In this document: one piece after another, positions 13,788-23,786 of the stretch
Layout: each line of letters opens with the position of its first letter
How positions within the stretch are numbered: the first letter of the stretch is position 1
Origin: Ilumatobacter sp.
Lineage (GTDB): Bacteria; Actinomycetota; Acidimicrobiia; Acidimicrobiales; Ilumatobacteraceae
Length of the DNA stretch: 64,000 nucleotides
Reading direction: 5' to 3'
Assembly (NCBI GenBank): GCA_051275435.1
Contig: JBNMOS010000001.1
Location: 8,567 to 72,566 of the forward strand
The notes under the pieces: model-generated
The model's input: the letters and a program-made list of their open reading frames with translations, nothing else
Database searches by the model: none
Told to the model about the DNA's origin: nothing
Position numbers and translations under genes: made by a program

Positions 13788-13955
13788 CGCCGACGCTATC
13801 CACGGCCTGCGCTATCCACGGCCTGGACTGCCGGGTTCGCTGCTGATTTGGGCGGGTATTGCGGGCGCTCGGATGAGCGAACCCTGTGACACCTGTGCCG
13901 AAACACGCGGCGCCACGGTTGGTCACATTCTGCGCGCGACCGTACGATGGAGGCA

Positions 13956-14903
13956 ATGTCCGTCGGCTCCCGTCCCCTTGTTCCGTCGCGGCTTGCGCCC
14001 GGCGGTGTGGCACACGGCAACCGTCGTGTCCCGACCACCGTCCTCGGTGCCTACATTGCACTCACCAAACCGCGCATCATCGAACTGCTGTTGATCACCA
14101 CGGTGCCGACGATGATCCTGGCCGAACGAGGCTGGCCCTCGACCTGGCTCGTCATCGTCACGCTGATCGGCGGGACGCTGTCGGCCGGCAGTGCAAACGC
14201 CGTCAACATGTACGTCGATCGCGACATTGATGCGCTGATGAAGCGCACGCAGGCCCGCCCGCTTGTCACGGGTGTAATTGAGCCGCGCAGTGCCCTGATT
14301 TTTGCCCTGAGCCTGCAAGTGTTTGCTTTCGGAGTGCTCTGGGCTGGAGCCAACCTCTTGTCGGCAGTCCTCGCGTTCGCCGCTGCCGCCTTCTACATCG
14401 GGGTGTACACCATCTGGTTGAAGCGCACGAGCAGGCAGAACATCGTGATCGGCGGCGCGGCAGGTGCCGTTCCGGTCTTGGTTGGCTGGTCGGCGGTGCA
14501 AAACAACGTCACCTGGACGCCGGTCGTGCTTTTCATTGTGATGTTCCTCTGGACGCCACCTCATTTCTGGGCACTGGCTGTCAAGTACGCCGACGACTAC
14601 CGCGCTGCCGACGTCCCGATGCTTCCCAGCGTGGTGTCGATGGCCGAAACGGTCAAGCAGATGACCTTGTACACCGTCGCTCTCTGCATCTCCACGCTGG
14701 TTCTGATCCCGGTAGCTGATCTCGGCTGGATTTATGGGATCTCTGCCGTTGTCCTCGGCGCTGTGTTTCTTGGTGGCACTATTGCGTTGGGCAGGCACCC
14801 CACCGAGGCAGCGAGCATGCGGCTCTTTGGTTTCTCCATCACCTACGTCACGCTGCTCTTTGGCGCCATGTCACTCGATGTCTTCGTGGAGTACGGGTTC
14901 TAA
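13956..14903 (+). CDS. ctaB: Protoheme IX farnesyltransferase (heme O synthase)
   Basis: LTKPRII, DRDIDALMKRTQARPL, FLWTPPHFWAL, DDYRAADVPMLP. Confidence 0.95.
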   Translation: MSVGSRPLVPSRLAPGGVAHGNRRVPTTVLGAYIALTKPRIIELLLITTVPTMILAERGWPSTWLVIVTLIGGTLSAGSANAVNMYVDRDIDALMKRTQARPLVTGVIEPRSALIFALSLQVFAFGVLWAGANLLSAVLAFAAAAFYIGVYTIWLKRTSRQNIVIGGAAGAVPVLVGWSAVQNNVTWTPVVLFIVMFLWTPPHFWALAVKYADDYRAADVPMLPSVVSMAETVKQMTLYTVALCISTLVLIPVADLGWIYGISAVVLGAVFLGGTIALGRHPTEAASMRLFGFSITYVTLLFGAMSLDVFVEYGF

Positions 14904-15060
14904 CCCGTTTGTCTTGTGAACTTGTTCTCTGGCGCCCGGGACGAATCTTGGTTTGATTTCAGAAGAAATGCCCCCGTGCAAGTAGTCTCGGGCCGTTGTG
15001 TCCAACGACTTGACAGTCGAAATCTGATCCGTTGAACGAATTAAGTGAGCTCCACTTCGT

Positions 15061-16701
15061 ATGACAACCATTGATCCCACCGCCGAAGTCATTGCTTCAA
15101 GTGTCGAAGCGGGAAACAGCGCGCTTGATCGCCTGCTCACCGCCGTCGCCGATTGGCTGACATCAACCGACCACAAGAAAATCGGCAGGCTGTTCCTTGG
15201 TGGAGGCCTGCTGGGCCTTCTGGGAACGGTCGCTATCAACGTGATTCTCGGAATCGAGCGGAGCGGTATCGGCAACATCGATGACGGTGCCATCGCCCAG
15301 ATCCTTGATGCGCAGCGTGTGGGGCTCGTGTTCGGCACGCTGTTGCCGCTTGCGATCGGCCTCTGTATCGCTGTCGTCCCGATGCAGCTCGGCGCCCGCT
15401 CCATTGCGTTCCCACGCCTGGCCGCGACCGGTTTCTGGATGTGGGCTGGCGGCCTGATTTTCTCGATGATCGCTCTCGTGAACAACGGCGGCGGCCTCGG
15501 TGGCGACCCCGACATGGTTGACCTCTTTCTCGGTGCGCACGGGCTGATGGCTATCGGCCTCGCCGCAACGGGCGTCTCGATCGCCACCAGCGTGCTCACT
15601 ACGCGGGCACCGGGCATGACATTGCGCCGCGTCCCGTTCTTCGCAATGTCGGCCCTCGTTATGGGTCTCGGACTCGTCATCGTGATGCCGGTCCTGCTCG
15701 GCACGTTGACCTACCTCTTCGTCGATCACCGCAACGGCCGCGAAGCCTTCGGTGGCAACGTGGGCCTGTACCAGTGGGCCGGCTGGATCTTCTCGCCGGG
15801 CGCAGCGGTGTTGTTCGCTATCCCAGTCGCCGGTCTACTCGCCGAAGGTGCACCGCTGCTCTTCAAGCAGCGCACGCCAGCACGCGGCATCGTGTTTGCC
15901 GGCTTCGCTCTGATGGGCGTCGCTGCCCTCGGCTCAGTCACCCAGGTCGCCGTGCACAACGTTCCGTGGGCGGGCAGCGATCTCTACCTTGGTGGAGGCG
16001 ACGACGTTCGCGAAAAGCTCTACGACGTCGTCCCGTGGGCGATGTTCAACTTGCTCCCGCTACTCGGTCTCACGATCGTGTTGCTGATGACCTTCTTCCT
16101 CGCCAAGCCGGTCAAGGGTGCCAGGCCCAACGTCACGCCGGCATTGGCCTTCGGCTTTCTCGGGCTTGGCATGGTTATGGTCGGCATGATCGGTACCGCG
16201 CTGTTTGCCATCGAAGACCTCGGCCTGCAAGGCACGGTCTTTGACGAAGGCGCCTTGATCTACGTGGTCTACGGCACCGTCCTTGCTGTGCTCGGCGGCA
16301 TGGCCCATTGGGCGCCGAAACTCTGGGGCGTCAATCTTCAGGCTGCCAAGGTGCTTCCGCTCGCCGTCCTCGGTCTGCTCGCAACGGTGCTCGCATCGCT
16401 GCCCAGCTACGTTGCCGGCTTCGACGAGCCGCGTGACATCTACGCCATTCTTGTCCTCGTCGGGCACGTGCTCATGGCGCTGACCGTGCTGGGCTTCATC
16501 GGCCTCCTCGTCACCTCGATGATGAGCTCGGACGGCAACGCCGAAGCCGATCCGTACGACGGACAAACGCTCGAGTGGGCCACGGCCTCTCCGGCGCCTG
16601 CCAATAACTTCGCCGAGACACCAACGGTGATGTCGGCTGAACCACTGGCCGATAGCAAGTCGAACTACGGCCACACCGAATCCGAGAAGGGCGAAAGCTG
16701 A
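15061..16701 (+). CDS. Cytochrome c oxidase subunit I paralogue lacking all heme/Cu ligands (pseudo-oxidase)
   Basis: Colinear with CtaD (TDHKKIG, LGARSIAFPRL, RAPGM, WAPKLWG, DPYDGQTLEWATASP) but HPEVY, HH and HxH are absent. Confidence 0.85.
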   Translation: MTTIDPTAEVIASSVEAGNSALDRLLTAVADWLTSTDHKKIGRLFLGGGLLGLLGTVAINVILGIERSGIGNIDDGAIAQILDAQRVGLVFGTLLPLAIGLCIAVVPMQLGARSIAFPRLAATGFWMWAGGLIFSMIALVNNGGGLGGDPDMVDLFLGAHGLMAIGLAATGVSIATSVLTTRAPGMTLRRVPFFAMSALVMGLGLVIVMPVLLGTLTYLFVDHRNGREAFGGNVGLYQWAGWIFSPGAAVLFAIPVAGLLAEGAPLLFKQRTPARGIVFAGFALMGVAALGSVTQVAVHNVPWAGSDLYLGGGDDVREKLYDVVPWAMFNLLPLLGLTIVLLMTFFLAKPVKGARPNVTPALAFGFLGLGMVMVGMIGTALFAIEDLGLQGTVFDEGALIYVVYGTVLAVLGGMAHWAPKLWGVNLQAAKVLPLAVLGLLATVLASLPSYVAGFDEPRDIYAILVLVGHVLMALTVLGFIGLLVTSMMSSDGNAEADPYDGQTLEWATASPAPANNFAETPTVMSAEPLADSKSNYGHTESEKGES

Positions 16702-17276
16702 TGCAAGCTCTCACTGCCGGCCCAGTTGCCGCACCGCGCCGCCAGATCATCGTCGGCACCACGCTCGGCGTGGTCGCTATGTCGATGATGGTCGGCGGGA
16801 TGCTCGCCGTCTGGTCCGAACAGCGCACCAATTTCGTCGAGCGAGACGGCAATTGGCTTCCCAGCGGTGTCGTCATCCCTGAAGTCGCTGCCAACGTCGC
16901 CCTGATTGCGTTCATCGCCATCTGCACCTTTGCTCAGTGGGCCGTGTGGGCTGCCAAGCGCAGCGACCGAGGTCACGGCGTCTTCGCTCTTGCTGCTACC
17001 GCCCTCGTGGCGATCATGGTGATCAACGCTCAGGCGTTCATCTATTCCGAGATGGGTGTCGGTGTCGGCGATGGTGCGTACGCCACCATGTTCTATGCGC
17101 TCACCGGTTTATTCATGGCGCTGATGCTCATCGGTGTCATCTTCTCCGTCGTCGCCGCATTCCGGTTCGCTGGGGGCCGCAGCGACAACGAGATCCTCGC
17201 CGCCCACGCCATCTACTGGTACGCCATGTCCATCATCTACACGGCCATCTGGTTCGTCGTCTACGTCACCAAGTGA
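16701..17276 (+). CDS. Divergent cytochrome c oxidase subunit III paralogue
   Basis: 5 TM; YATMFYALTG and AIYWY..WFVVYV align with CtaE FFTLTGFH and LYWHFVD..LVYL; His residues lost. Confidence 0.75.
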   Translation: MQALTAGPVAAPRRQIIVGTTLGVVAMSMMVGGMLAVWSEQRTNFVERDGNWLPSGVVIPEVAANVALIAFIAICTFAQWAVWAAKRSDRGHGVFALAATALVAIMVINAQAFIYSEMGVGVGDGAYATMFYALTGLFMALMLIGVIFSVVAAFRFAGGRSDNEILAAHAIYWYAMSIIYTAIWFVVYVTK

Positions 17277-17283
17277 GTTCTTG

Positions 17284-18468
17284 ATGTTCACTACTGGTTC
17301 CAAACTCCTCATCGGCTCCTCCGTCTTCGCGATGGTTGCTGCGGTCGTCTATGGCGTCACGCAGAACGAGGCCCTCGGCATCGTCGGCCTCGTGTCGGCG
17401 GCATGCGCGCTTGCCTTCCTGGCCGGCGTCAACGTCTGGGCTGCCGACTCCAACCTTTCTGCTGTGGACGCCACTGCGGTTGCCACGTCCGAAGCATCCG
17501 ACGACCCGCCCGGCGCCAGCATCTGGCCGATGGTCTTTGCCGTCGGTGCTGCCGCAGTGCTCCTGGGCCTCGTCACGCAACAGTCGATCTTCACGATCGG
17601 CCTCATCATCCTCCTCGCCGCAGGTGCGCAGTGGGCTGTGCAGGCTTGGGCCGAGAGTGCATCGACTGATTCGACCACCAATGCTGCCGTCCGTGGTCGT
17701 CTCGCGAACCCGCTCGAGTACCCGTTACTCGGAGCGGTCGCCGTCGGTAGCATCGCCTACGCCTTGAGCCGCATCATGTTGTGGCTCTCCAAAACCAACA
17801 CGATCATCGCCTTCGTCACGCTGGCAACGGTGCTTGCTTGCATTGGTTTCATCTTCGCCGCCCGCCCGTCGGTCAAGCGGGGTGCCATCGGTGGCGTCCT
17901 GACTCTTGGTGCCGTCGCAGTCGTCGCCGGCGGTGTCGCTGCCGGTATCGACGGAGAGCGTGACATCCACGTCTACGAGACCGTCGCTGCTGACGCTGCA
18001 TTGTTTTGCGATTCGCCCGACGAGTTCGAGATCGATGAGGGCGCCAGCCAGACCGTTTCCACCAAGGCCAGCACCTACACGATCTCGCTGACTGCAGCCG
18101 GCAGCCTCGTGTTCGATGTACCCGGCCCGGTCGACGAAGGTGCCGAAGCCATCTCTCTGCCTCGCTCGAACCCGAACAACATTGTGTTCCGCAACGACTC
18201 GGGCGAAGCACGTCGCCTCACGCTCGATTTCGGTCCCGCCCCGGTCGAAGAGGGCGCCGACGCCGCAGAAGAGGGCCACGGCGCAGACGAGGAACATGGC
18301 GAGAAAAGCGACCGCCACCTCACATGCACGTCGCTTGTCGAAGACGGTGGCGCTCAGCTGATCACCGTCAAGTTTGACGAGCCCAGCTTTGCCTACGCCG
18401 ACGACCCCGAAGCCTTCCGCTTCTACGTTCCCGGCACCGACGCCGAAATCGATGTGGTCGTGCCGTGA
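17284..18468 (+). CDS. Membrane protein: CtaF-like TM region plus C-terminal cupredoxin-like domain without Cu ligands
   Basis: About 7 TM including PPGASIWP; soluble beta-rich tail IVFRNDSGEARRLTL..FRFYVPG; start ATG 17284. Confidence 0.6.
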   Translation: MFTTGSKLLIGSSVFAMVAAVVYGVTQNEALGIVGLVSAACALAFLAGVNVWAADSNLSAVDATAVATSEASDDPPGASIWPMVFAVGAAAVLLGLVTQQSIFTIGLIILLAAGAQWAVQAWAESASTDSTTNAAVRGRLANPLEYPLLGAVAVGSIAYALSRIMLWLSKTNTIIAFVTLATVLACIGFIFAARPSVKRGAIGGVLTLGAVAVVAGGVAAGIDGERDIHVYETVAADAALFCDSPDEFEIDEGASQTVSTKASTYTISLTAAGSLVFDVPGPVDEGAEAISLPRSNPNNIVFRNDSGEARRLTLDFGPAPVEEGADAAEEGHGADEEHGEKSDRHLTCTSLVEDGGAQLITVKFDEPSFAYADDPEAFRFYVPGTDAEIDVVVP

Positions 18469-19742
18469 CGTACGACCTGAACATGTCCCACCAATCACCG
18501 ACCACGAAAATGCAGGCTGTGGAAACCACAACTACGTTGAAGTCCGTGACCTCCTCACGGCTCGTTCGCACCCTCGTAGCGGGCTCTCTCGCTGCGTTGC
18601 TCGCTGGCTGCGCAACTGATGCGCCGCAAGACACATGGCAGCCCAAGGGCCCGAATTCCCAGATGATCAACGACCTCGACTGGGTCGTCTTCGGTATCGC
18701 CGGTGTCGTCGGCGTCGTCGTCTTCTCTGTGCTGGGTTTCGCTCTCTGGAAGTACCGAGATCGCGGCCAGCCGATCCCTGAGCAAACTCACGGTAAGCCG
18801 GCGCTTGAAATCGGCCTCACGATTCTTCCGGCGTTGATTTTGGTCGGCATCGCCATCCCGACGGTTGGCACGATCATGGATCTTGCTGAGACCTCCGACA
18901 CCGAGTGCATTGTCAACGTCACCGGCCAGCAGTGGTGGTGGGAAATTGACTACCCGGTGCAAGACGGTTGTGGCGGTATCGACGAGCCCATCGTCACCTC
19001 CGGCCAGATGGTCATCGAAGCCGGCACCAAGGTGCTCGTGCGCGGTACCAGTCGTGACGTCATCCACTCCTGGTGGATCCCGAGCCTCAACGGCAAGCGT
19101 GACATGGTTCCCGGTCGAATCCACACCGTTCGCCTCGAGGCCGACGAACCGGGCATCTTTGCCGGTCAGTGCACCGAGTTCTGCGGCCTCAGTCATGCCA
19201 ACATGCGCATGGAAGTCATTGCGATGAACTCGGCAGACTTTGCCATCTGGAAGTCCAATCAGACCCAGGACTACGTCTCTCCGGCTGCTGGATCGTTGGC
19301 TGCTGAGGGCGAATCGACCTTCATTTCGCAGTGCTCACGCTGTCACCAGGTCGATGGCCTCACCGACTCGAACGACGAGCTGATCATCTCCCGTCCCGAT
19401 CAAAACGTCTGGTCCGGTGCTGCGCCAAACCTCACTAACTTCATGACCCGCAACACGTTCGCTGGTGCGTCGTGGGACCTGCTCAGTAAGGAATGCCGCC
19501 CCGGAGTCTGGGACGCCGATCCGAGCACCATTGGAGCGGCCTACCTCGACGGTGTCACCGATAGCTGCCTCAATGAGGTCGAACTCCGTGAATGGTTGCG
19601 TAATGCCCCGGCCAAAAAGCCGATGTACACCGACCCGGAAAGCCTCGAAGAGACCAATGGTCTTGTTCGCGGCATGCCCTACCTCGCCCTGAGCGAGGAC
19701 CAGATCGACCAACTGGTCGCCTACCTGCTCGAACGCAAGTAA
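18465..19742 (+). CDS. ctaC: Cytochrome c oxidase subunit II with fused cytochrome c (caa3 type)
   Basis: LLAGC lipobox, GQQWWW, DVIHSWW, CuA CTEFCGLSHANM, heme c CSRCH; true start may be slightly downstream. Confidence 0.93.
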   Translation: MTYDLNMSHQSPTTKMQAVETTTTLKSVTSSRLVRTLVAGSLAALLAGCATDAPQDTWQPKGPNSQMINDLDWVVFGIAGVVGVVVFSVLGFALWKYRDRGQPIPEQTHGKPALEIGLTILPALILVGIAIPTVGTIMDLAETSDTECIVNVTGQQWWWEIDYPVQDGCGGIDEPIVTSGQMVIEAGTKVLVRGTSRDVIHSWWIPSLNGKRDMVPGRIHTVRLEADEPGIFAGQCTEFCGLSHANMRMEVIAMNSADFAIWKSNQTQDYVSPAAGSLAAEGESTFISQCSRCHQVDGLTDSNDELIISRPDQNVWSGAAPNLTNFMTRNTFAGASWDLLSKECRPGVWDADPSTIGAAYLDGVTDSCLNEVELREWLRNAPAKKPMYTDPESLEETNGLVRGMPYLALSEDQIDQLVAYLLERK

Positions 19743-19756
19743 GGAGCTGACGTCAC

Positions 19757-21775
19757 ATGGCAATCATCGAACGCCCAGCCGAAGCACCGGCCACGACACA
19801 GCGTGGATCGGCCCCCACTCCGAAGGCCTCCACCAACTACGGCTACCTCCGTCGTCCTGTCGAGACGACCGGCTGGCGCTCGTGGGCCTTCACTGTCGAT
19901 CACAAAAAGATCGGCATCATGTATGGCGCCGTTGCGATGTTCTTCTTCATCCTCGGCGGCCTCGAAGCGGCCCTGATCCGCCTGCAGCTCGCTGGCCCTG
20001 ACGGCACGATTCTGTCGGCCGACAAGTACAACCAGATGTTCACGATGCACGCCACCACGATGGTGTTCCTCTTCGTGATGCCGATGGCTGCGGCCTTCGC
20101 CAACTACTTCATCCCGCTCCAAATCGGTGCCCGCGACGTCGCGTTCCCCCGGTTGAACGCGCTTTCGCTGTGGGTGTTTGTCTTCGGCGGCGTCTTCCTC
20201 AACACGTCGTGGTTCCTCGGCGGCGGTGCTGATGGCGGCTGGTTCATGTACGCACCGAATAGTTCGGTGCCGTTCAGCCCGACCAACGGCGTCGACTTCT
20301 GGGGCCTCGGCCTCCAGATCACCGGCATCGCCTCGCTGGTCGGCGCAATCAACCTGATTGTCACGGTTCTCAACATGCGTGCGCCGGGCATGTCGATGAT
20401 GAAGATGCCGATCTTTACTTGGATGGCCTTCGTCGTCCAGATGCTCCTCCTCTTCGCCATCCCCGTGATCACAGTCGCACTCTTCCTGCTGATGTTCCAG
20501 CGAAGTTTCGGCGCCCAGTTCTTCAGTGTCGAGGCTGGCGCCGACCCGCTGCTCTGGCAGCACTTGTTCTGGATTTTCGGGCACCCCGAGGTGTACATCC
20601 TCGTCTTGCCGTCCTTCGGCATCATCTCCGAGGTCCTTCCGGTCTTCTCGAAGAAGCCGTTGTTTGGCTACCCATTCGTCGTCTTCTCTGGCGCTGCGAT
20701 CGGCTTCGTCGGCTGGGGCGTGTGGGCCCACCACATGTTCGCTTCGGGCCTCGGGCCGGTCTCGGTTGCAGTGTTCTCGGTGGCCACCATGGCCATCGCC
20801 GTGCCAACCGGCGTCAAGATCATCAACTGGACCCTCACACTGTGGGGCGGCAAGCTGACGTTCACCACGGCGATGCTGTTCGCTGTCGGCCTCATCGTGC
20901 AGTTCACGATTGGTGGTCTCTCGGGTGTCACGCACGCAGTGGCTCCGTCTGACACGCAGCAGACCGACACCTATTACATCGTTGCGCACTTCCACTACGT
21001 CATCTTCGGTGGTGCCGTGCTCGGACTGTTCTCCGGTTTCTACTACTGGTGGCCGAAGGTCTTCGGAAAGCTCCTCAGCGAGTCCTTGGGCAAATGGAAC
21101 TTCTGGCTGATGATCGCTGGCATGAACCTCACCTTCGGTCCCATGCACATCATTGGTCTGCAAGGCCAGCCACGCCGTATGTACCGCTGGACCGAATTCC
21201 GTGCGGGCGAGGGATTCTTCAACCTCGGCTTCTGGAACCTCGTCGCCACGATCGGCACCTTCGTCCTGGGCGTCGGCATCCTGCTCTTCCTGGTCAACAT
21301 TTGGATCACGCATCGTCCCAACTCGAAGACCCCGCCGGCACCTGCTGACCCCTGGGATGCACGCAGCCTCGAGTGGATCACCAGCAGCCCGCCGAAGGAG
21401 TACAACTTCGCTCGCACGCCGCAGGTGTCCCAGCTCGACGAGTTCTTCCACCGGAAGTACGAAGATGTCGGTGAAGGTGACAAGCACGAGTACGTGCAAA
21501 AGATGACCGGCGAAGAGGTCATTCAGTTCGAAGAAGACAACGCCGATCCGAACATCCACCTCCCGGCTCCGTCTTACTGGCCGATGGTTCTTGCGTTCGC
21601 TCTGCCAGTCATGGCATATGGCGTGATCTACAACACTCTGTTGATCGTCGCAGGTGGTGCGATCGCGACGATGGCGATGTTTGGTTGGGCTCTCGAGCCA
21701 GCCGACGCAGAAGCATCTGACTTCGACCCGCCGGTCGAGGGCGACGAGACGAGCAAGGAACTAGCCAATGTCTGA
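19757..21775 (+). CDS. ctaD: Cytochrome c oxidase subunit I (A1 type)
   Basis: FTMHAT, ARDVAFPRLN, FGHPEVY, WAHHMF, PTGVK, VAHFHYV, PRR; two extra C-terminal TM helices. Confidence 0.97.
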   Translation: MAIIERPAEAPATTQRGSAPTPKASTNYGYLRRPVETTGWRSWAFTVDHKKIGIMYGAVAMFFFILGGLEAALIRLQLAGPDGTILSADKYNQMFTMHATTMVFLFVMPMAAAFANYFIPLQIGARDVAFPRLNALSLWVFVFGGVFLNTSWFLGGGADGGWFMYAPNSSVPFSPTNGVDFWGLGLQITGIASLVGAINLIVTVLNMRAPGMSMMKMPIFTWMAFVVQMLLLFAIPVITVALFLLMFQRSFGAQFFSVEAGADPLLWQHLFWIFGHPEVYILVLPSFGIISEVLPVFSKKPLFGYPFVVFSGAAIGFVGWGVWAHHMFASGLGPVSVAVFSVATMAIAVPTGVKIINWTLTLWGGKLTFTTAMLFAVGLIVQFTIGGLSGVTHAVAPSDTQQTDTYYIVAHFHYVIFGGAVLGLFSGFYYWWPKVFGKLLSESLGKWNFWLMIAGMNLTFGPMHIIGLQGQPRRMYRWTEFRAGEGFFNLGFWNLVATIGTFVLGVGILLFLVNIWITHRPNSKTPPAPADPWDARSLEWITSSPPKEYNFARTPQVSQLDEFFHRKYEDVGEGDKHEYVQKMTGEEVIQFEEDNADPNIHLPAPSYWPMVLAFALPVMAYGVIYNTLLIVAGGAIATMAMFGWALEPADAEASDFDPPVEGDETSKELANV

Positions 21776-22457
21776 TTCGCTCATCTCCGAAACGGTGAAG
21801 GACGCCGTTCAAATCGTCAAAGACCATAGTGGCGACGTGCACGAGCACGACGTCCACGCTGGCGACGATCATTCCGGTGATCACGGTGGCCATCACACGT
21901 CACTTGGTCTTTCGAACACGAAGTTGGCCATGTGGCTCTTCCTCGGTTCGGAATGCCTGCTGTTCGGTGGCCTGATTTCCACCTACATGCTCTACCGCAA
22001 CCGCCACTCGGAAAACCTGGGGCCTGATCAGCTGTGGGACATTCCGTTCACGTCGGCAACGAGCTTCGTGCTCCTCACCTCGTCACTCACGATGGTGCTG
22101 GCCGTGTCGGCAGCGAACCGCAAGGACCTCCGCAACACCAAAATTTACCTCGGTGTCACGTCGCTGCTCGGTGCACTGTTTCTCGCCGGACAGATTTACG
22201 AGTTCACGGTCTTCTACCGTGAGGGCTTGGGGTTCACCACGAGCTTGTTCTCGTCGAGTTTCTTTACCCTCACCGGTTTCCACGGCGTGCACGTCTCGAT
22301 CGGCATCATCATGCTGGTTGCGATGATTGGTATGTTGTCGAAAGAGAAGGTGTCTGGCGACGAGGCAGAAGCGGTCGAAATGGTCGGTCTTTACTGGCAC
22401 TTCGTCGACATCGTCTGGATTATTATCTTCACGCTCGTCTACCTGATTCCGGCTTGA
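21768..22457 (+). CDS. ctaE: Cytochrome c oxidase subunit III
   Basis: MWLFLGSE, LTGFHGVHV, GLYWHFVDIVW. Confidence 0.95.
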   Translation: MSDSLISETVKDAVQIVKDHSGDVHEHDVHAGDDHSGDHGGHHTSLGLSNTKLAMWLFLGSECLLFGGLISTYMLYRNRHSENLGPDQLWDIPFTSATSFVLLTSSLTMVLAVSAANRKDLRNTKIYLGVTSLLGALFLAGQIYEFTVFYREGLGFTTSLFSSSFFTLTGFHGVHVSIGIIMLVAMIGMLSKEKVSGDEAEAVEMVGLYWHFVDIVWIIIFTLVYLIPA

Positions 22458-22460
22458 TCA

Positions 22461-22790
22461 ATGACTGACACACTCGAAACTCCCACCGCCCACGACGAGC
22501 ACGGTGCCGATGCGCACCATGGCCCGAGCGATAGGCAGTTCGTCACGATCTTCTTTATCCTCGCTGCCATCACCGCAGTCGAGGTGGCCGTCAGTTACAT
22601 CGATATCGGCGCGCTCTTCCTGCCGGTCTTGCTTGGTCTGATGGTCGTGAAGTTCTTCACTGTCGTGCTGTACTTCATGCACATCAAGTTCGACAACAAA
22701 CTGTTTGGCCGGCTGTTTTACATTGGCCTCGGCCTGGCTGTCTTCGTTTACGTTGCGGCGCTGTCGACGTTCCAGTTCTTCGCCGGCTGA
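22461..22790 (+). CDS. Cytochrome c oxidase subunit IV (caa3-type)
   Basis: ILAAITAVEV, KFFTVVLYFMHIKFD; 3 TM. Confidence 0.88.
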   Translation: MTDTLETPTAHDEHGADAHHGPSDRQFVTIFFILAAITAVEVAVSYIDIGALFLPVLLGLMVVKFFTVVLYFMHIKFDNKLFGRLFYIGLGLAVFVYVAALSTFQFFAG

Positions 22791-22862
22791 TTCGGGCCCA
22801 CGTGACCGACGCCGCCGTCGCAGGACTGGGCGCGCTGACACCTGGGTTCTAGGATTGTGTTT

Positions 22863-23786
22863 GTGATCGAGCAGGCCAATGACCTTGCCGCAGCGGACCC
22901 CTGGAGATTTCAGTGGCATCCCGAGGTGTGGCTCCTCGTCGCCTTTTTGACAGGCGCGTTTGTCTACATGGTCCGCGTGATCGGCCCAAAGGCCGTGCCG
23001 ATGGGCCAGCCAGTAGTCACTCGGAAGAATATTTACGCCTTCGTCGGAGCCATGGTGATGCTGTGGGTTGCCAGCGACTGGCCACTGCATGACATTTCCG
23101 AGGAGTACCTGTACTCGGCGCACATGTTGCAGCACATGATGCTCAGCTACTTCCTGCCGCCGCTTGCGCTCATTGCCACGCCGCCGTGGCTGTTGCGTGT
23201 TCTGGTGGGCGACGGCCGCCTGTACACCGGTTTGAAGTTTCTGACGAAACCGGTGATTGCCGGTGTGCTGTTCAACGTCGTGGTCATCATCAGCCACATC
23301 CCGATGGTCGTGAACAGCTCGCTCGACAATGGTCCGCTCCACTACTCACTGCACGCCCTCGTGGTATTGCTCTCACTGCTGATGTGGATGCCCGTCGTTG
23401 GCCCATTCAAGGAACTCCACATCGGCCCACTCGGCAAGTGCATCTATCTGTTTCTGCAGTCGGTCATTCCGACTTTGCCTGCAGCTTGGCTGACGTTCGC
23501 TGAAGGAGCGGTCTACAAGGAGTACGACATTCCGGTTCGTGTCTTCGGGTGGAGCGTCACTGTTGACCAGCAGTTGGCTGGCGGGATAATGAAATTGGGC
23601 GGCTCGACATTCCTGTGGACCATCGTCGTCTATATCTTCTTCAAGCGCTTCGCCAACGGCTACGGCGAGTCGCAGGATTATCGCCGCCATGATCCGGCAC
23701 CCTCAGGCGAATCTGACGATGTACTCACGACGGCCGACGTCGAGCGTGAGTTCGCCACCCTGTCGGCTCCGCCCGACGACCGCTGA
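22863..23786 (+). CDS. ctaG: caa3-type oxidase assembly factor
   Basis: WPLHDISEEYLYSAHMLQHM, DQQLAGGIMK; start GTG 22863 (or 22857). Confidence 0.87.
   Translation: MIEQANDLAAADPWRFQWHPEVWLLVAFLTGAFVYMVRVIGPKAVPMGQPVVTRKNIYAFVGAMVMLWVASDWPLHDISEEYLYSAHMLQHMMLSYFLPPLALIATPPWLLRVLVGDGRLYTGLKFLTKPVIAGVLFNVVVIISHIPMVVNSSLDNGPLHYSLHALVVLLSLLMWMPVVGPFKELHIGPLGKCIYLFLQSVIPTLPAAWLTFAEGAVYKEYDIPVRVFGWSVTVDQQLAGGIMKLGGSTFLWTIVVYIFFKRFANGYGESQDYRRHDPAPSGESDDVLTTADVEREFATLSAPPDDR

Follow-up and report, generated by a model that had tools for sequence, protein, structure and literature searches.

A predicted non-catalytic, oxidase-shaped gene trio under purifying selection at the head of the caa3 operon of Ilumatobacter and other Acidimicrobiales

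Two described terminal oxidases are the closest relatives of a gene module found in a 64,000-nucleotide stretch of Ilumatobacter sp. DNA (the window), in which three open reading frames (ORFs) lie between the heme O synthase gene ctaB and an intact caa3 oxidase operon. The ORFs are named here sI (CtaD-like), sIII (CtaE-like) and sIV (CtaF/cupredoxin). The first relative is the actinobacterial aa3 oxidase of the bcc-aa3 supercomplex (PDB 6ADQ, 7Q21 and 8HCR), which has the same split into a 12-helix subunit I, CtaE and the 4-helix CtaF; it provides the best family matches of sIII and sIV, and sI falls on its side of the tree. Unlike this enzyme, the module has no subunit II of its own and no CuB, heme or proton-channel residues, its CtaF continues, within a caa3 operon, into a fused segment of three further helices and a cupredoxin, and its genomes mostly carry a b6-type complex III instead of QcrCAB. 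The second relative is the A-family caa3 oxidase of Bacillus/Thermus type (PDB 2YEV), represented by the neighbouring ctaCDE-IV-G genes. It shares the operon and the subunit I fold (sI and the neighbouring CtaD are 26% identical), but the module is not its duplicate and, by sequence, is predicted to be catalytically dead. Membrane-anchored type-1 cupredoxins (auracyanin; Cupredoxin_1, PF13473) have the fold of the C-terminal domain of sIV, and their motif is intact in some sIV orthologues and in a standalone caa3-operon gene; in the window, however, the sIV ligands are replaced and the anchor is an unnamed three-helix unit fused to CtaF.

A catalytically dead paralogue next to an active subunit is known from alternative complex III (ActF beside ActC). 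In the module, by contrast, an entire oxidase core of three subunits has been kept, and its ancestry differs from that of the active enzyme. In nitric oxide reductases and other heme-copper families with altered ligands, the metal site of the subunit I fold is changed, but hemes and a second metal are kept, whereas sI of the window keeps no ligand for either. Full-text searches of open literature gave no description of a ligand-free trio, although subscription surveys of actinobacterial respiratory chains or heme-copper classifications may mention the genes.

ORF sI (15061..16701, plus strand; 546 aa, 12 predicted membrane helices) matched the Pfam family COX1 (PF00115) with 72.6 bits (cut-off 34.8), compared with 510.6 bits for the neighbouring CtaD. 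Its AlphaFold2 model contained 12 helices (pLDDT 89, pTM 0.90) and resembled solved oxidase subunits I (Foldseek TMq 0.73–0.80). In the alignment, CtaD residues H98, H276, E278, Y280, H325, H326, H411 and H413 correspond to Q85, P246, A248, V250, Q295, V296, A398 and I400 of sI, and the channel residues D127 (D-channel) and K354 (K-channel) to S114 and V340. The CuB site is therefore occupied by P246, Q295 and V296, with V250 in the column of the cross-linked Tyr, while Q85, I400 and A398 stand in place of the heme a bis-His pair and the heme a3 His. A catalytic A-family subunit I was rejected on these grounds, the COX1 fold being there and the CuB, heme and D/K-channel residues not, and so was a nitric oxide reductase, since all six His are replaced. 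The protein is thus predicted to be an oxidase subunit I fold unable to do oxidase chemistry.

ORF sIII (16701..17276, plus strand; 191 aa) matched Pfam COX3 (PF00510) with 38.3 bits, and its sole NCBIfam match was NF050119 (aa3_CtaE_Actin; E 1.5e-8, 35.1 bits against a cut-off of 190). The GFHGxHV and WHFVD motifs are missing. The uninterrupted ORF sIV (17284..18468, plus strand; 394 aa) was predicted to form seven helices and a beta domain (pLDDT 88). Residues 1–124 (17284..17655) are CtaF-like with four predicted membrane helices; the match to Cyt_c_ox_IV (CtaF, PF12270; E 1.7e-4) reached 22.1 bits, below the cut-off of 26.9. Homology of sIII and sIV to CtaE and CtaF was upheld despite the sub-cut-off scores because the profile search with sIV matched solved CtaF chains, namely 8hcr_H (4.8e-5), 7q21_F, 9wcx_m and 6adq_H. 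Residues 130–223 (17671..17952) form a three-helix membrane unit with near-invariant P147, S162, R163 and G217, and residues from about 262 to 394 (18067..18468) a predicted cupredoxin-fold domain (Foldseek 4hcf and 6kol, E 3–5e-4), in which the type-1 Cu ligands (His/Cys/His/Met) are replaced. This ligand-free domain is flanked by two cysteines, C242 and C348, which are shared by many members of the family and could be joined as a disulfide. Weak ND4L matches from a single-sequence PDB search with sIV (E about 0.45) were taken as chance, and a complex prediction of sIV residues 126–238 with CtaD, CtaE and subunit IV scored 0.00 with an uncertain fold of the partner, a result that weighs neither for nor against binding.

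The original prediction, made from the window alone, had described three tightly coupled, uninterrupted ORFs with gaps of 7 bp or less and the codon style of the real oxidase genes. All of this was borne out: sI and sIII overlap by 1 nt, sIII and sIV are separated by 7 nt, sIV overlaps the longest ctaC ORF by 4 nt, and the proportion of G and C at third codon positions is 0.78, 0.80 and 0.75 in sI, sIII and sIV compared with 0.74–0.81 in ctaB and the ctaC, ctaD, ctaE, subunit IV and ctaG genes. It had also stated that metal ligands are missing from all three proteins. In canonical oxidases, subunit III and CtaF bind no redox metal, so the claim holds for sI and the sIV cupredoxin, whereas in sIII the loss is one of conserved motifs.

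Ligands were then compared across 32 loci with both sI and CtaD, picked for spread and intact frames; loci with a frameshifted or truncated sI or ctaD (L043, L047/L126, L109, L114, L125, L120, L123 and L127) and many near-duplicate members of the genus stand outside this count. Every ligand was kept in all 32 paired CtaD proteins. In contrast, the residues equivalent to H276, H325, K354 and D127, present in 32/32 CtaD, were absent from 32/32 sI; a His in the H326 column occurred in one sI and Glu278 in three. Neither the GFHGxHV nor the WHFVD motif was kept by any sIII (0/32). The loss is graded, however: both heme a His were kept in 7/32 sI (the bis-His pair being gone in the other 25) and all three heme His in 3/32. 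An intact type-1 Cu motif (HN...CxxH..M) was present on sIV in 4/32 loci (L111, L113, L115 and L154), all four among the seven with the heme a His, and three of them hold all three heme His; L120 and L127, from outside the 32, also hold the motif. Overall, 4 of the orthologues have an intact cupredoxin, 11 a ligand-free one and 17 none, and the membrane part stayed. The expectation that orthologues would lack the ligands held for the CuB site (kept in 0/32) but failed in 7/32 for heme a and in 4/32 for type-1 copper.

Relocation of a heme site to the seven remaining His of the window's sI was ruled out by their poor conservation. The only His found in more than 19 of the 32 sI is that of an N-terminal DHK, common to CtaD; H223 recurred in 19/32, H416 in 11/32, and H160, H299, H469 and H538 in at most 6/32. 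Conservation of sI relative to CtaD was highest in the C-terminal tail (0.83), loop 2-3 (0.72), loop 4-5 (0.66), transmembrane helix 3 (TM3; 0.62) and loop 10-11 (0.62), and lowest in TM6-10 (0.28–0.41), with TM8 at 0.28. In an oxidase, the subunit III side of subunit I is formed by TM3-5 and the subunit II side by TM8-9.

Orthologues of sI (53–91% identity) were found in 20 of 24 genomes of the genus. Of the four without a strong match, three (G005, G008 and G022) are 78–81% complete with ctaD no more than 3.5 kb from the contig start, and one (G018, 94% complete) is without any COX1-like match. A draw of 200 genomes of the class with completeness of at least 90% was also surveyed, a full-length sIV being defined by E under 1e-50. 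It was present in 49/61 genomes of the order, including all 24 of the family and genomes of about 1.7–2 Mb, and in 0/139 others. Among the 12 genomes of the order that lack it, nine gave a short CtaF-level match only and three none; all 12 carry a long QcrB-type cytochrome b, and the one such locus that was read (L145) has the canonical actinobacterial layout. The order sI-sIII-sIV-ctaC-ctaD was constant in the module loci examined wherever contigs extend, with ctaB upstream, divergent in two loci. A TlpA/ResA-like thioredoxin gene lies between sIV and ctaC in L111 (5228-5836), L113 (6537-7232) and L128 (11723-12448). Three loci titled Gammaproteobacteria or Bifidobacterium (L031, L034 and L050) carry the operon amid Ilumatobacteraceae sequences, and their labels look wrong.

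Against seven relatives, dN/dS was 0.08–0.19 for sI, 0.07–0.16 for sIII and 0.10–0.20 for sIV, compared with 0.01–0.06 for ctaD and 0.05–0.14 for ctaC; these values come from a simple pairwise counting method with pairs that are not independent. The trio is under purifying selection, and the proposed check of synteny and dN/dS across relatives returned a kept gene order and ratios not near 1. Frameshifted copies do occur in some assemblies (e.g. G011), but assemblies with broken module genes also have broken ctaB, ctaC or ctaD (L047/L126, L054 and L125), which indicates sequencing error. A pseudogene was ruled out by dN/dS of no more than 0.20 and by presence in 49/61 genomes, and these data together with the ligand loss support the earlier claim of a selected, non-catalytic module.

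The same claim had called the module a copy of the oxidase. As a duplicate of the neighbouring caa3 genes this did not survive. In a carefully built, unrooted tree of 25 rows, sI formed one group (100/100) on the side of the actinobacterial-type CtaD, and the set of sI, family f30 (from a sister order) and actinobacterial CtaD was parted from the caa3 CtaD by branches with support of 92/96, 94/92 and 100/100. The approximately unbiased (AU) test rejected a clade of sI and caa3 CtaD (p-AU 0.0077) and with it a duplication of the adjacent ctaD, and sIII and sIV match the actinobacterial CtaE and CtaF, respectively. In a larger tree of 53 rows (quick mode) the node of attachment stayed weakly supported, at 80. 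The ligand-keeping lineages had the shortest sI branches and lay nearest to intact enzymes in the 25-row tree. Family f30 has an intact ctaC-ctaD-ctaE-ctaF set in the same gene order, and its CtaC carries a type-1 cupredoxin where cytochrome c usually sits, making it a candidate for the ancestral state of sI, with its placement as sister likewise a candidate. Such sets, with subunit II ending in a type-1 cupredoxin, were seen on the minus strand of L155 (7931-11900) and L176 (6280-10343), and in L176 the cluster adjoins b6-type bc genes. These comparisons indicate that the module derives from an actinobacterial-type CtaD-CtaE-CtaF oxidase.

The C-terminal half of sIV has a different history. 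It matched a standalone gene for three helices and a cupredoxin (hhalign probability 99.6%, E 1.7e-24), which lies right after ctaG in 11 of 12 loci from sister orders and closes the caa3 operon in 12/12 loci from other classes of the phylum, all of them chosen for having a match to the unit. The copper motif is mostly intact in these genes, and no module genes were seen in either set of 12 loci. This gene, unnamed so far (L157, L158, L160-L168 and L183-L194, with two cupredoxin domains in L187 and L193), may encode an undescribed accessory subunit or electron shuttle. The history of these genes, as read from the sequences, thus connects sIV with the caa3 system.

In the twelfth sister-order locus (L159:12093-14237, minus strand; genome G052), the unit is fused to a cbb3/CcoN-like subunit I directly before ctaC. 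Its type-1 copper site is intact and the subunit I is without the canonical His. This protein and eight homologues (P0271-P0279; 56–67% identity) lack the canonical CcoN His, except that three of the group have one His near the first CuB position, and the His motifs are also absent from unfused CcoN-like proteins (P0280, P0282, P0284 and P0289-P0292). A ligand-free subunit I fold has thus been joined to the three-helix cupredoxin unit twice, from two families.

It is proposed that the trio forms a non-catalytic, oxidase-shaped membrane scaffold that docks with caa3, with b6-type complex III or with both in a supercomplex, and a probability of about 0.5 is assigned to this reading. An ancestor would have had two enzymes, a caa3 oxidase and a CtaC-D-E-F oxidase of actinobacterial type. 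The latter would have lost subunit II and the CuB site but kept the frame of CtaD/E/F, which in mycobacteria provides the binding face for complex III; CtaF would have taken over the caa3 accessory cupredoxin by fusion, giving sIV, and the heme a and blue-copper ligands would later have been lost in most lineages, that of the window included. In the resulting cells sI, sIII and sIV would assemble into a membrane block and dock with caa3 and/or complex III. The scaffold reading is suggested by the fact that the kept parts are those binding complex III in the mycobacterial supercomplex: in M. smegmatis the main III-IV contacts are reported to run via CtaE and CtaF (PMC8361435), the QcrB extension is reported to dock on CtaDEF (PMC8795186), and CtaE and CtaF are described as a split subunit III (10.1101/2021.06.16.448340). 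It is also suggested by the N-terminal loops and tail of sI, which are better kept than TM6-10.

In two near-complete module-bearing genomes, complex III is encoded by a split b6-type operon (ferredoxin, b6, subunit IV, Rieske protein and diheme cytochrome c) directly before nuoA. The operons in L137 (5852-12812) and L139 (6249-13414) run into nuoA and include a 4Fe-4S ferredoxin, a diheme cytochrome c and unassigned membrane proteins. Further oxidase clusters, also intact, occur in some module-bearing genomes (loci L138, L140 and L142), and in two cases a gene for a long QcrB-type cytochrome b lies next to the cluster. Expression was assessed from metatranscriptome contigs of relatives (one marine study, mostly 90–99% alike), which cover all three module genes and span the sI/sIII, sIII/sIV and sIV/ctaC junctions. 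Covered bins numbered 24, 22, 23 and 17 of 30 (351 nt) for the operon compared with 20, 19, 14 and 7 of 30 (664 nt) for a control region, in RNA runs that had been found using the operon region itself (shares of words 0.05–0.13). Expression of the trio in relatives is thus weakly indicated.

Several observations weigh against the proposed scaffold. The idea is drawn from the interface of the mycobacterial bcc, but complex III of these genomes is of the split b6 type: 40/49 module-bearing genomes scored at the b6-type level only and nine also have the long type, while in the window's own genome (G000, 82% complete) no cytochrome b was found. Sister orders run caa3 with a b6-type cytochrome b, and the module genes are absent from the 12 operon loci examined there. 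Most sister-order genomes score at the b6 level too, and this coexistence indicates that the module is not generally needed for coupling. The helix-wise pattern of sI is partly expected from ligand loss alone, as TM6-10 carry the ligands, and the alignment of TM8 is weakened by insertions. The sI branches are long and compositionally skewed, a pull that the starred support values and the AU test leave in place. In the RNA data the control region is partly covered too, and carry-over of DNA may contribute.

A rather unlikely alternative is an assembly scaffold or chaperone, in which the trio would bind CtaC, heme or copper, or lipid for a short time during the building of caa3 and would have left by the time the enzyme is mature. 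The placement between ctaB and ctaC fits such a role, as do the position of the three-helix cupredoxin unit after the assembly factor gene ctaG in sister lineages, the TlpA-like thioredoxin genes described above and the bis-His heme site kept in 7/32 sI. However, caa3 is built without the module in sister orders, the heme and copper ligands are absent from the window's proteins, the helices facing subunit II are the least conserved, and CtaA and Surf1 are encoded in all three module-bearing genomes that were tested. This last result (3/3) also ruled out that the trio stands in for an absent CtaA or Surf1; in the two genomes tested that lack the module, no Surf1 was found.

Electron transfer is the second alternative and was judged quite unlikely. 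Here the blue copper of sIV and heme a (and a3) of sI would serve as an electron relay or buffer linking complex III to caa3 in the ligand-keeping lineages, and the window would show a stripped frame. All four loci with the Cu motif hold both heme a His, three of them all three heme His, their sI sequences sit on the shortest branches of the tree, closest to the intact enzymes, and the f30 CtaC has a type-1 cupredoxin in the place of cytochrome c. This co-occurrence is among kin, three of the four loci being one clade, and so is not independent; moreover, selection continues after ligand loss, and a relay is inapplicable to the window's genome or to the 25 loci without the bis-His pair.

An improbable third possibility is a stand-alone membrane device (channel, conduit for lipid, quinone or O2, or sensor) sharing only its regulation with the oxidase. 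The 12-helix fold is retained with its core emptied, and the second, independent ligand-free subunit I suggests that the fold alone may be useful, but no conserved new set of His, Cys or Met marks a site, the D- and K-channel residues are gone in 32/32, and a link with the oxidase is indicated by the fused unit, which is an accessory of caa3 operons elsewhere. A decaying relic without current function is highly improbable: the trio evolves faster than ctaD, ligands and cupredoxin show graded loss and some copies (G011) are frameshifted, but dN/dS of 0.20 or less, presence in 49/61 genomes, small ones included, and the breaks that coincide with broken ctaB, ctaC or ctaD largely refute it.

Judged by sequence, the module lacks defining features of each of the enzyme families considered and represents a new kind of component with a putative structural role. 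The six His of subunit I have been treated as invariant, and its scaffold has been regarded as bound up with catalysis. A subunit I that has lost its ligands, yet is kept by selection across an order together with a subunit III and a CtaF of its own, indicates that the scaffold has a job in its own right. The module provides a natural setting in which to ask why there are a subunit III and supercomplex interfaces at all, and its lineages form a graded series from enzyme to structural part. A fuller picture, possible but doubtful at present, is an Acidimicrobiales supercomplex in which a full-size dead protomer derived from aa3 keeps the complex III docking face while caa3 does the chemistry, with living lineages preserving the stages by which an O2-blind heme/blue-copper relay became a bare scaffold, and with a second origin from a cbb3-type subunit I and the three-helix cupredoxin unit. 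The module genes are annotated as an extra 'cbb3-type', 'ubiquinol oxidase' or 'heme/copper-type' subunit I, which inflates the counts of terminal oxidases in common marine and freshwater actinobacteria.

The genes around the module, all on the plus strand, are those of a complete oxidase operon, as the original prediction had stated and as profiles and intact motifs confirmed. Upstream, ctaB (13947..14903) matched NF003349 (393 bits) and TIGR01473 (324 bits), both above cut-off, and is separated from sI by 157 nt, with a weak hairpin 3' of ctaB at 14893-14908. A promoter scan of the locus gave one site against 2.0 expected, and a search for hairpins inside the module gave none that was convincing. 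Downstream, ctaC (18465..19742) encodes an intact caa3 subunit II with the CuA motif and one CxxCH (Pfam/NCBIfam profiles). It is followed by ctaD (19757..21775; TIGR02891, 679 bits, above cut-off), an intact subunit I with all six His and a C-terminal CtaF-like extension (PF12270 piece at 602-647), by an intact subunit III gene, ctaE (21768..22457; Pfam/NCBIfam profiles), by a caa3-type subunit IV gene (22461..22790; PF03626, 42.6 bits) and by the assembly factor gene ctaG (Caa3_CtaG, 22857..23786; PF09678, 121 bits). The next gene is serS, and a standalone cupredoxin gene is absent there.

In the window's genome, sI and ctaD are the only two COX1-like genes. A context with caa3 as sole terminal oxidase was ruled out, bd oxidase being present in 4/5 genomes tested. 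In L184 (11991-13181) and L191 (9182-10375), and also in L196 (1450-2379), an extra standalone ctaE-like gene points away from the caa3 operon and has genes for cytochrome c maturation behind it; genome G346 has one COX1 gene only.

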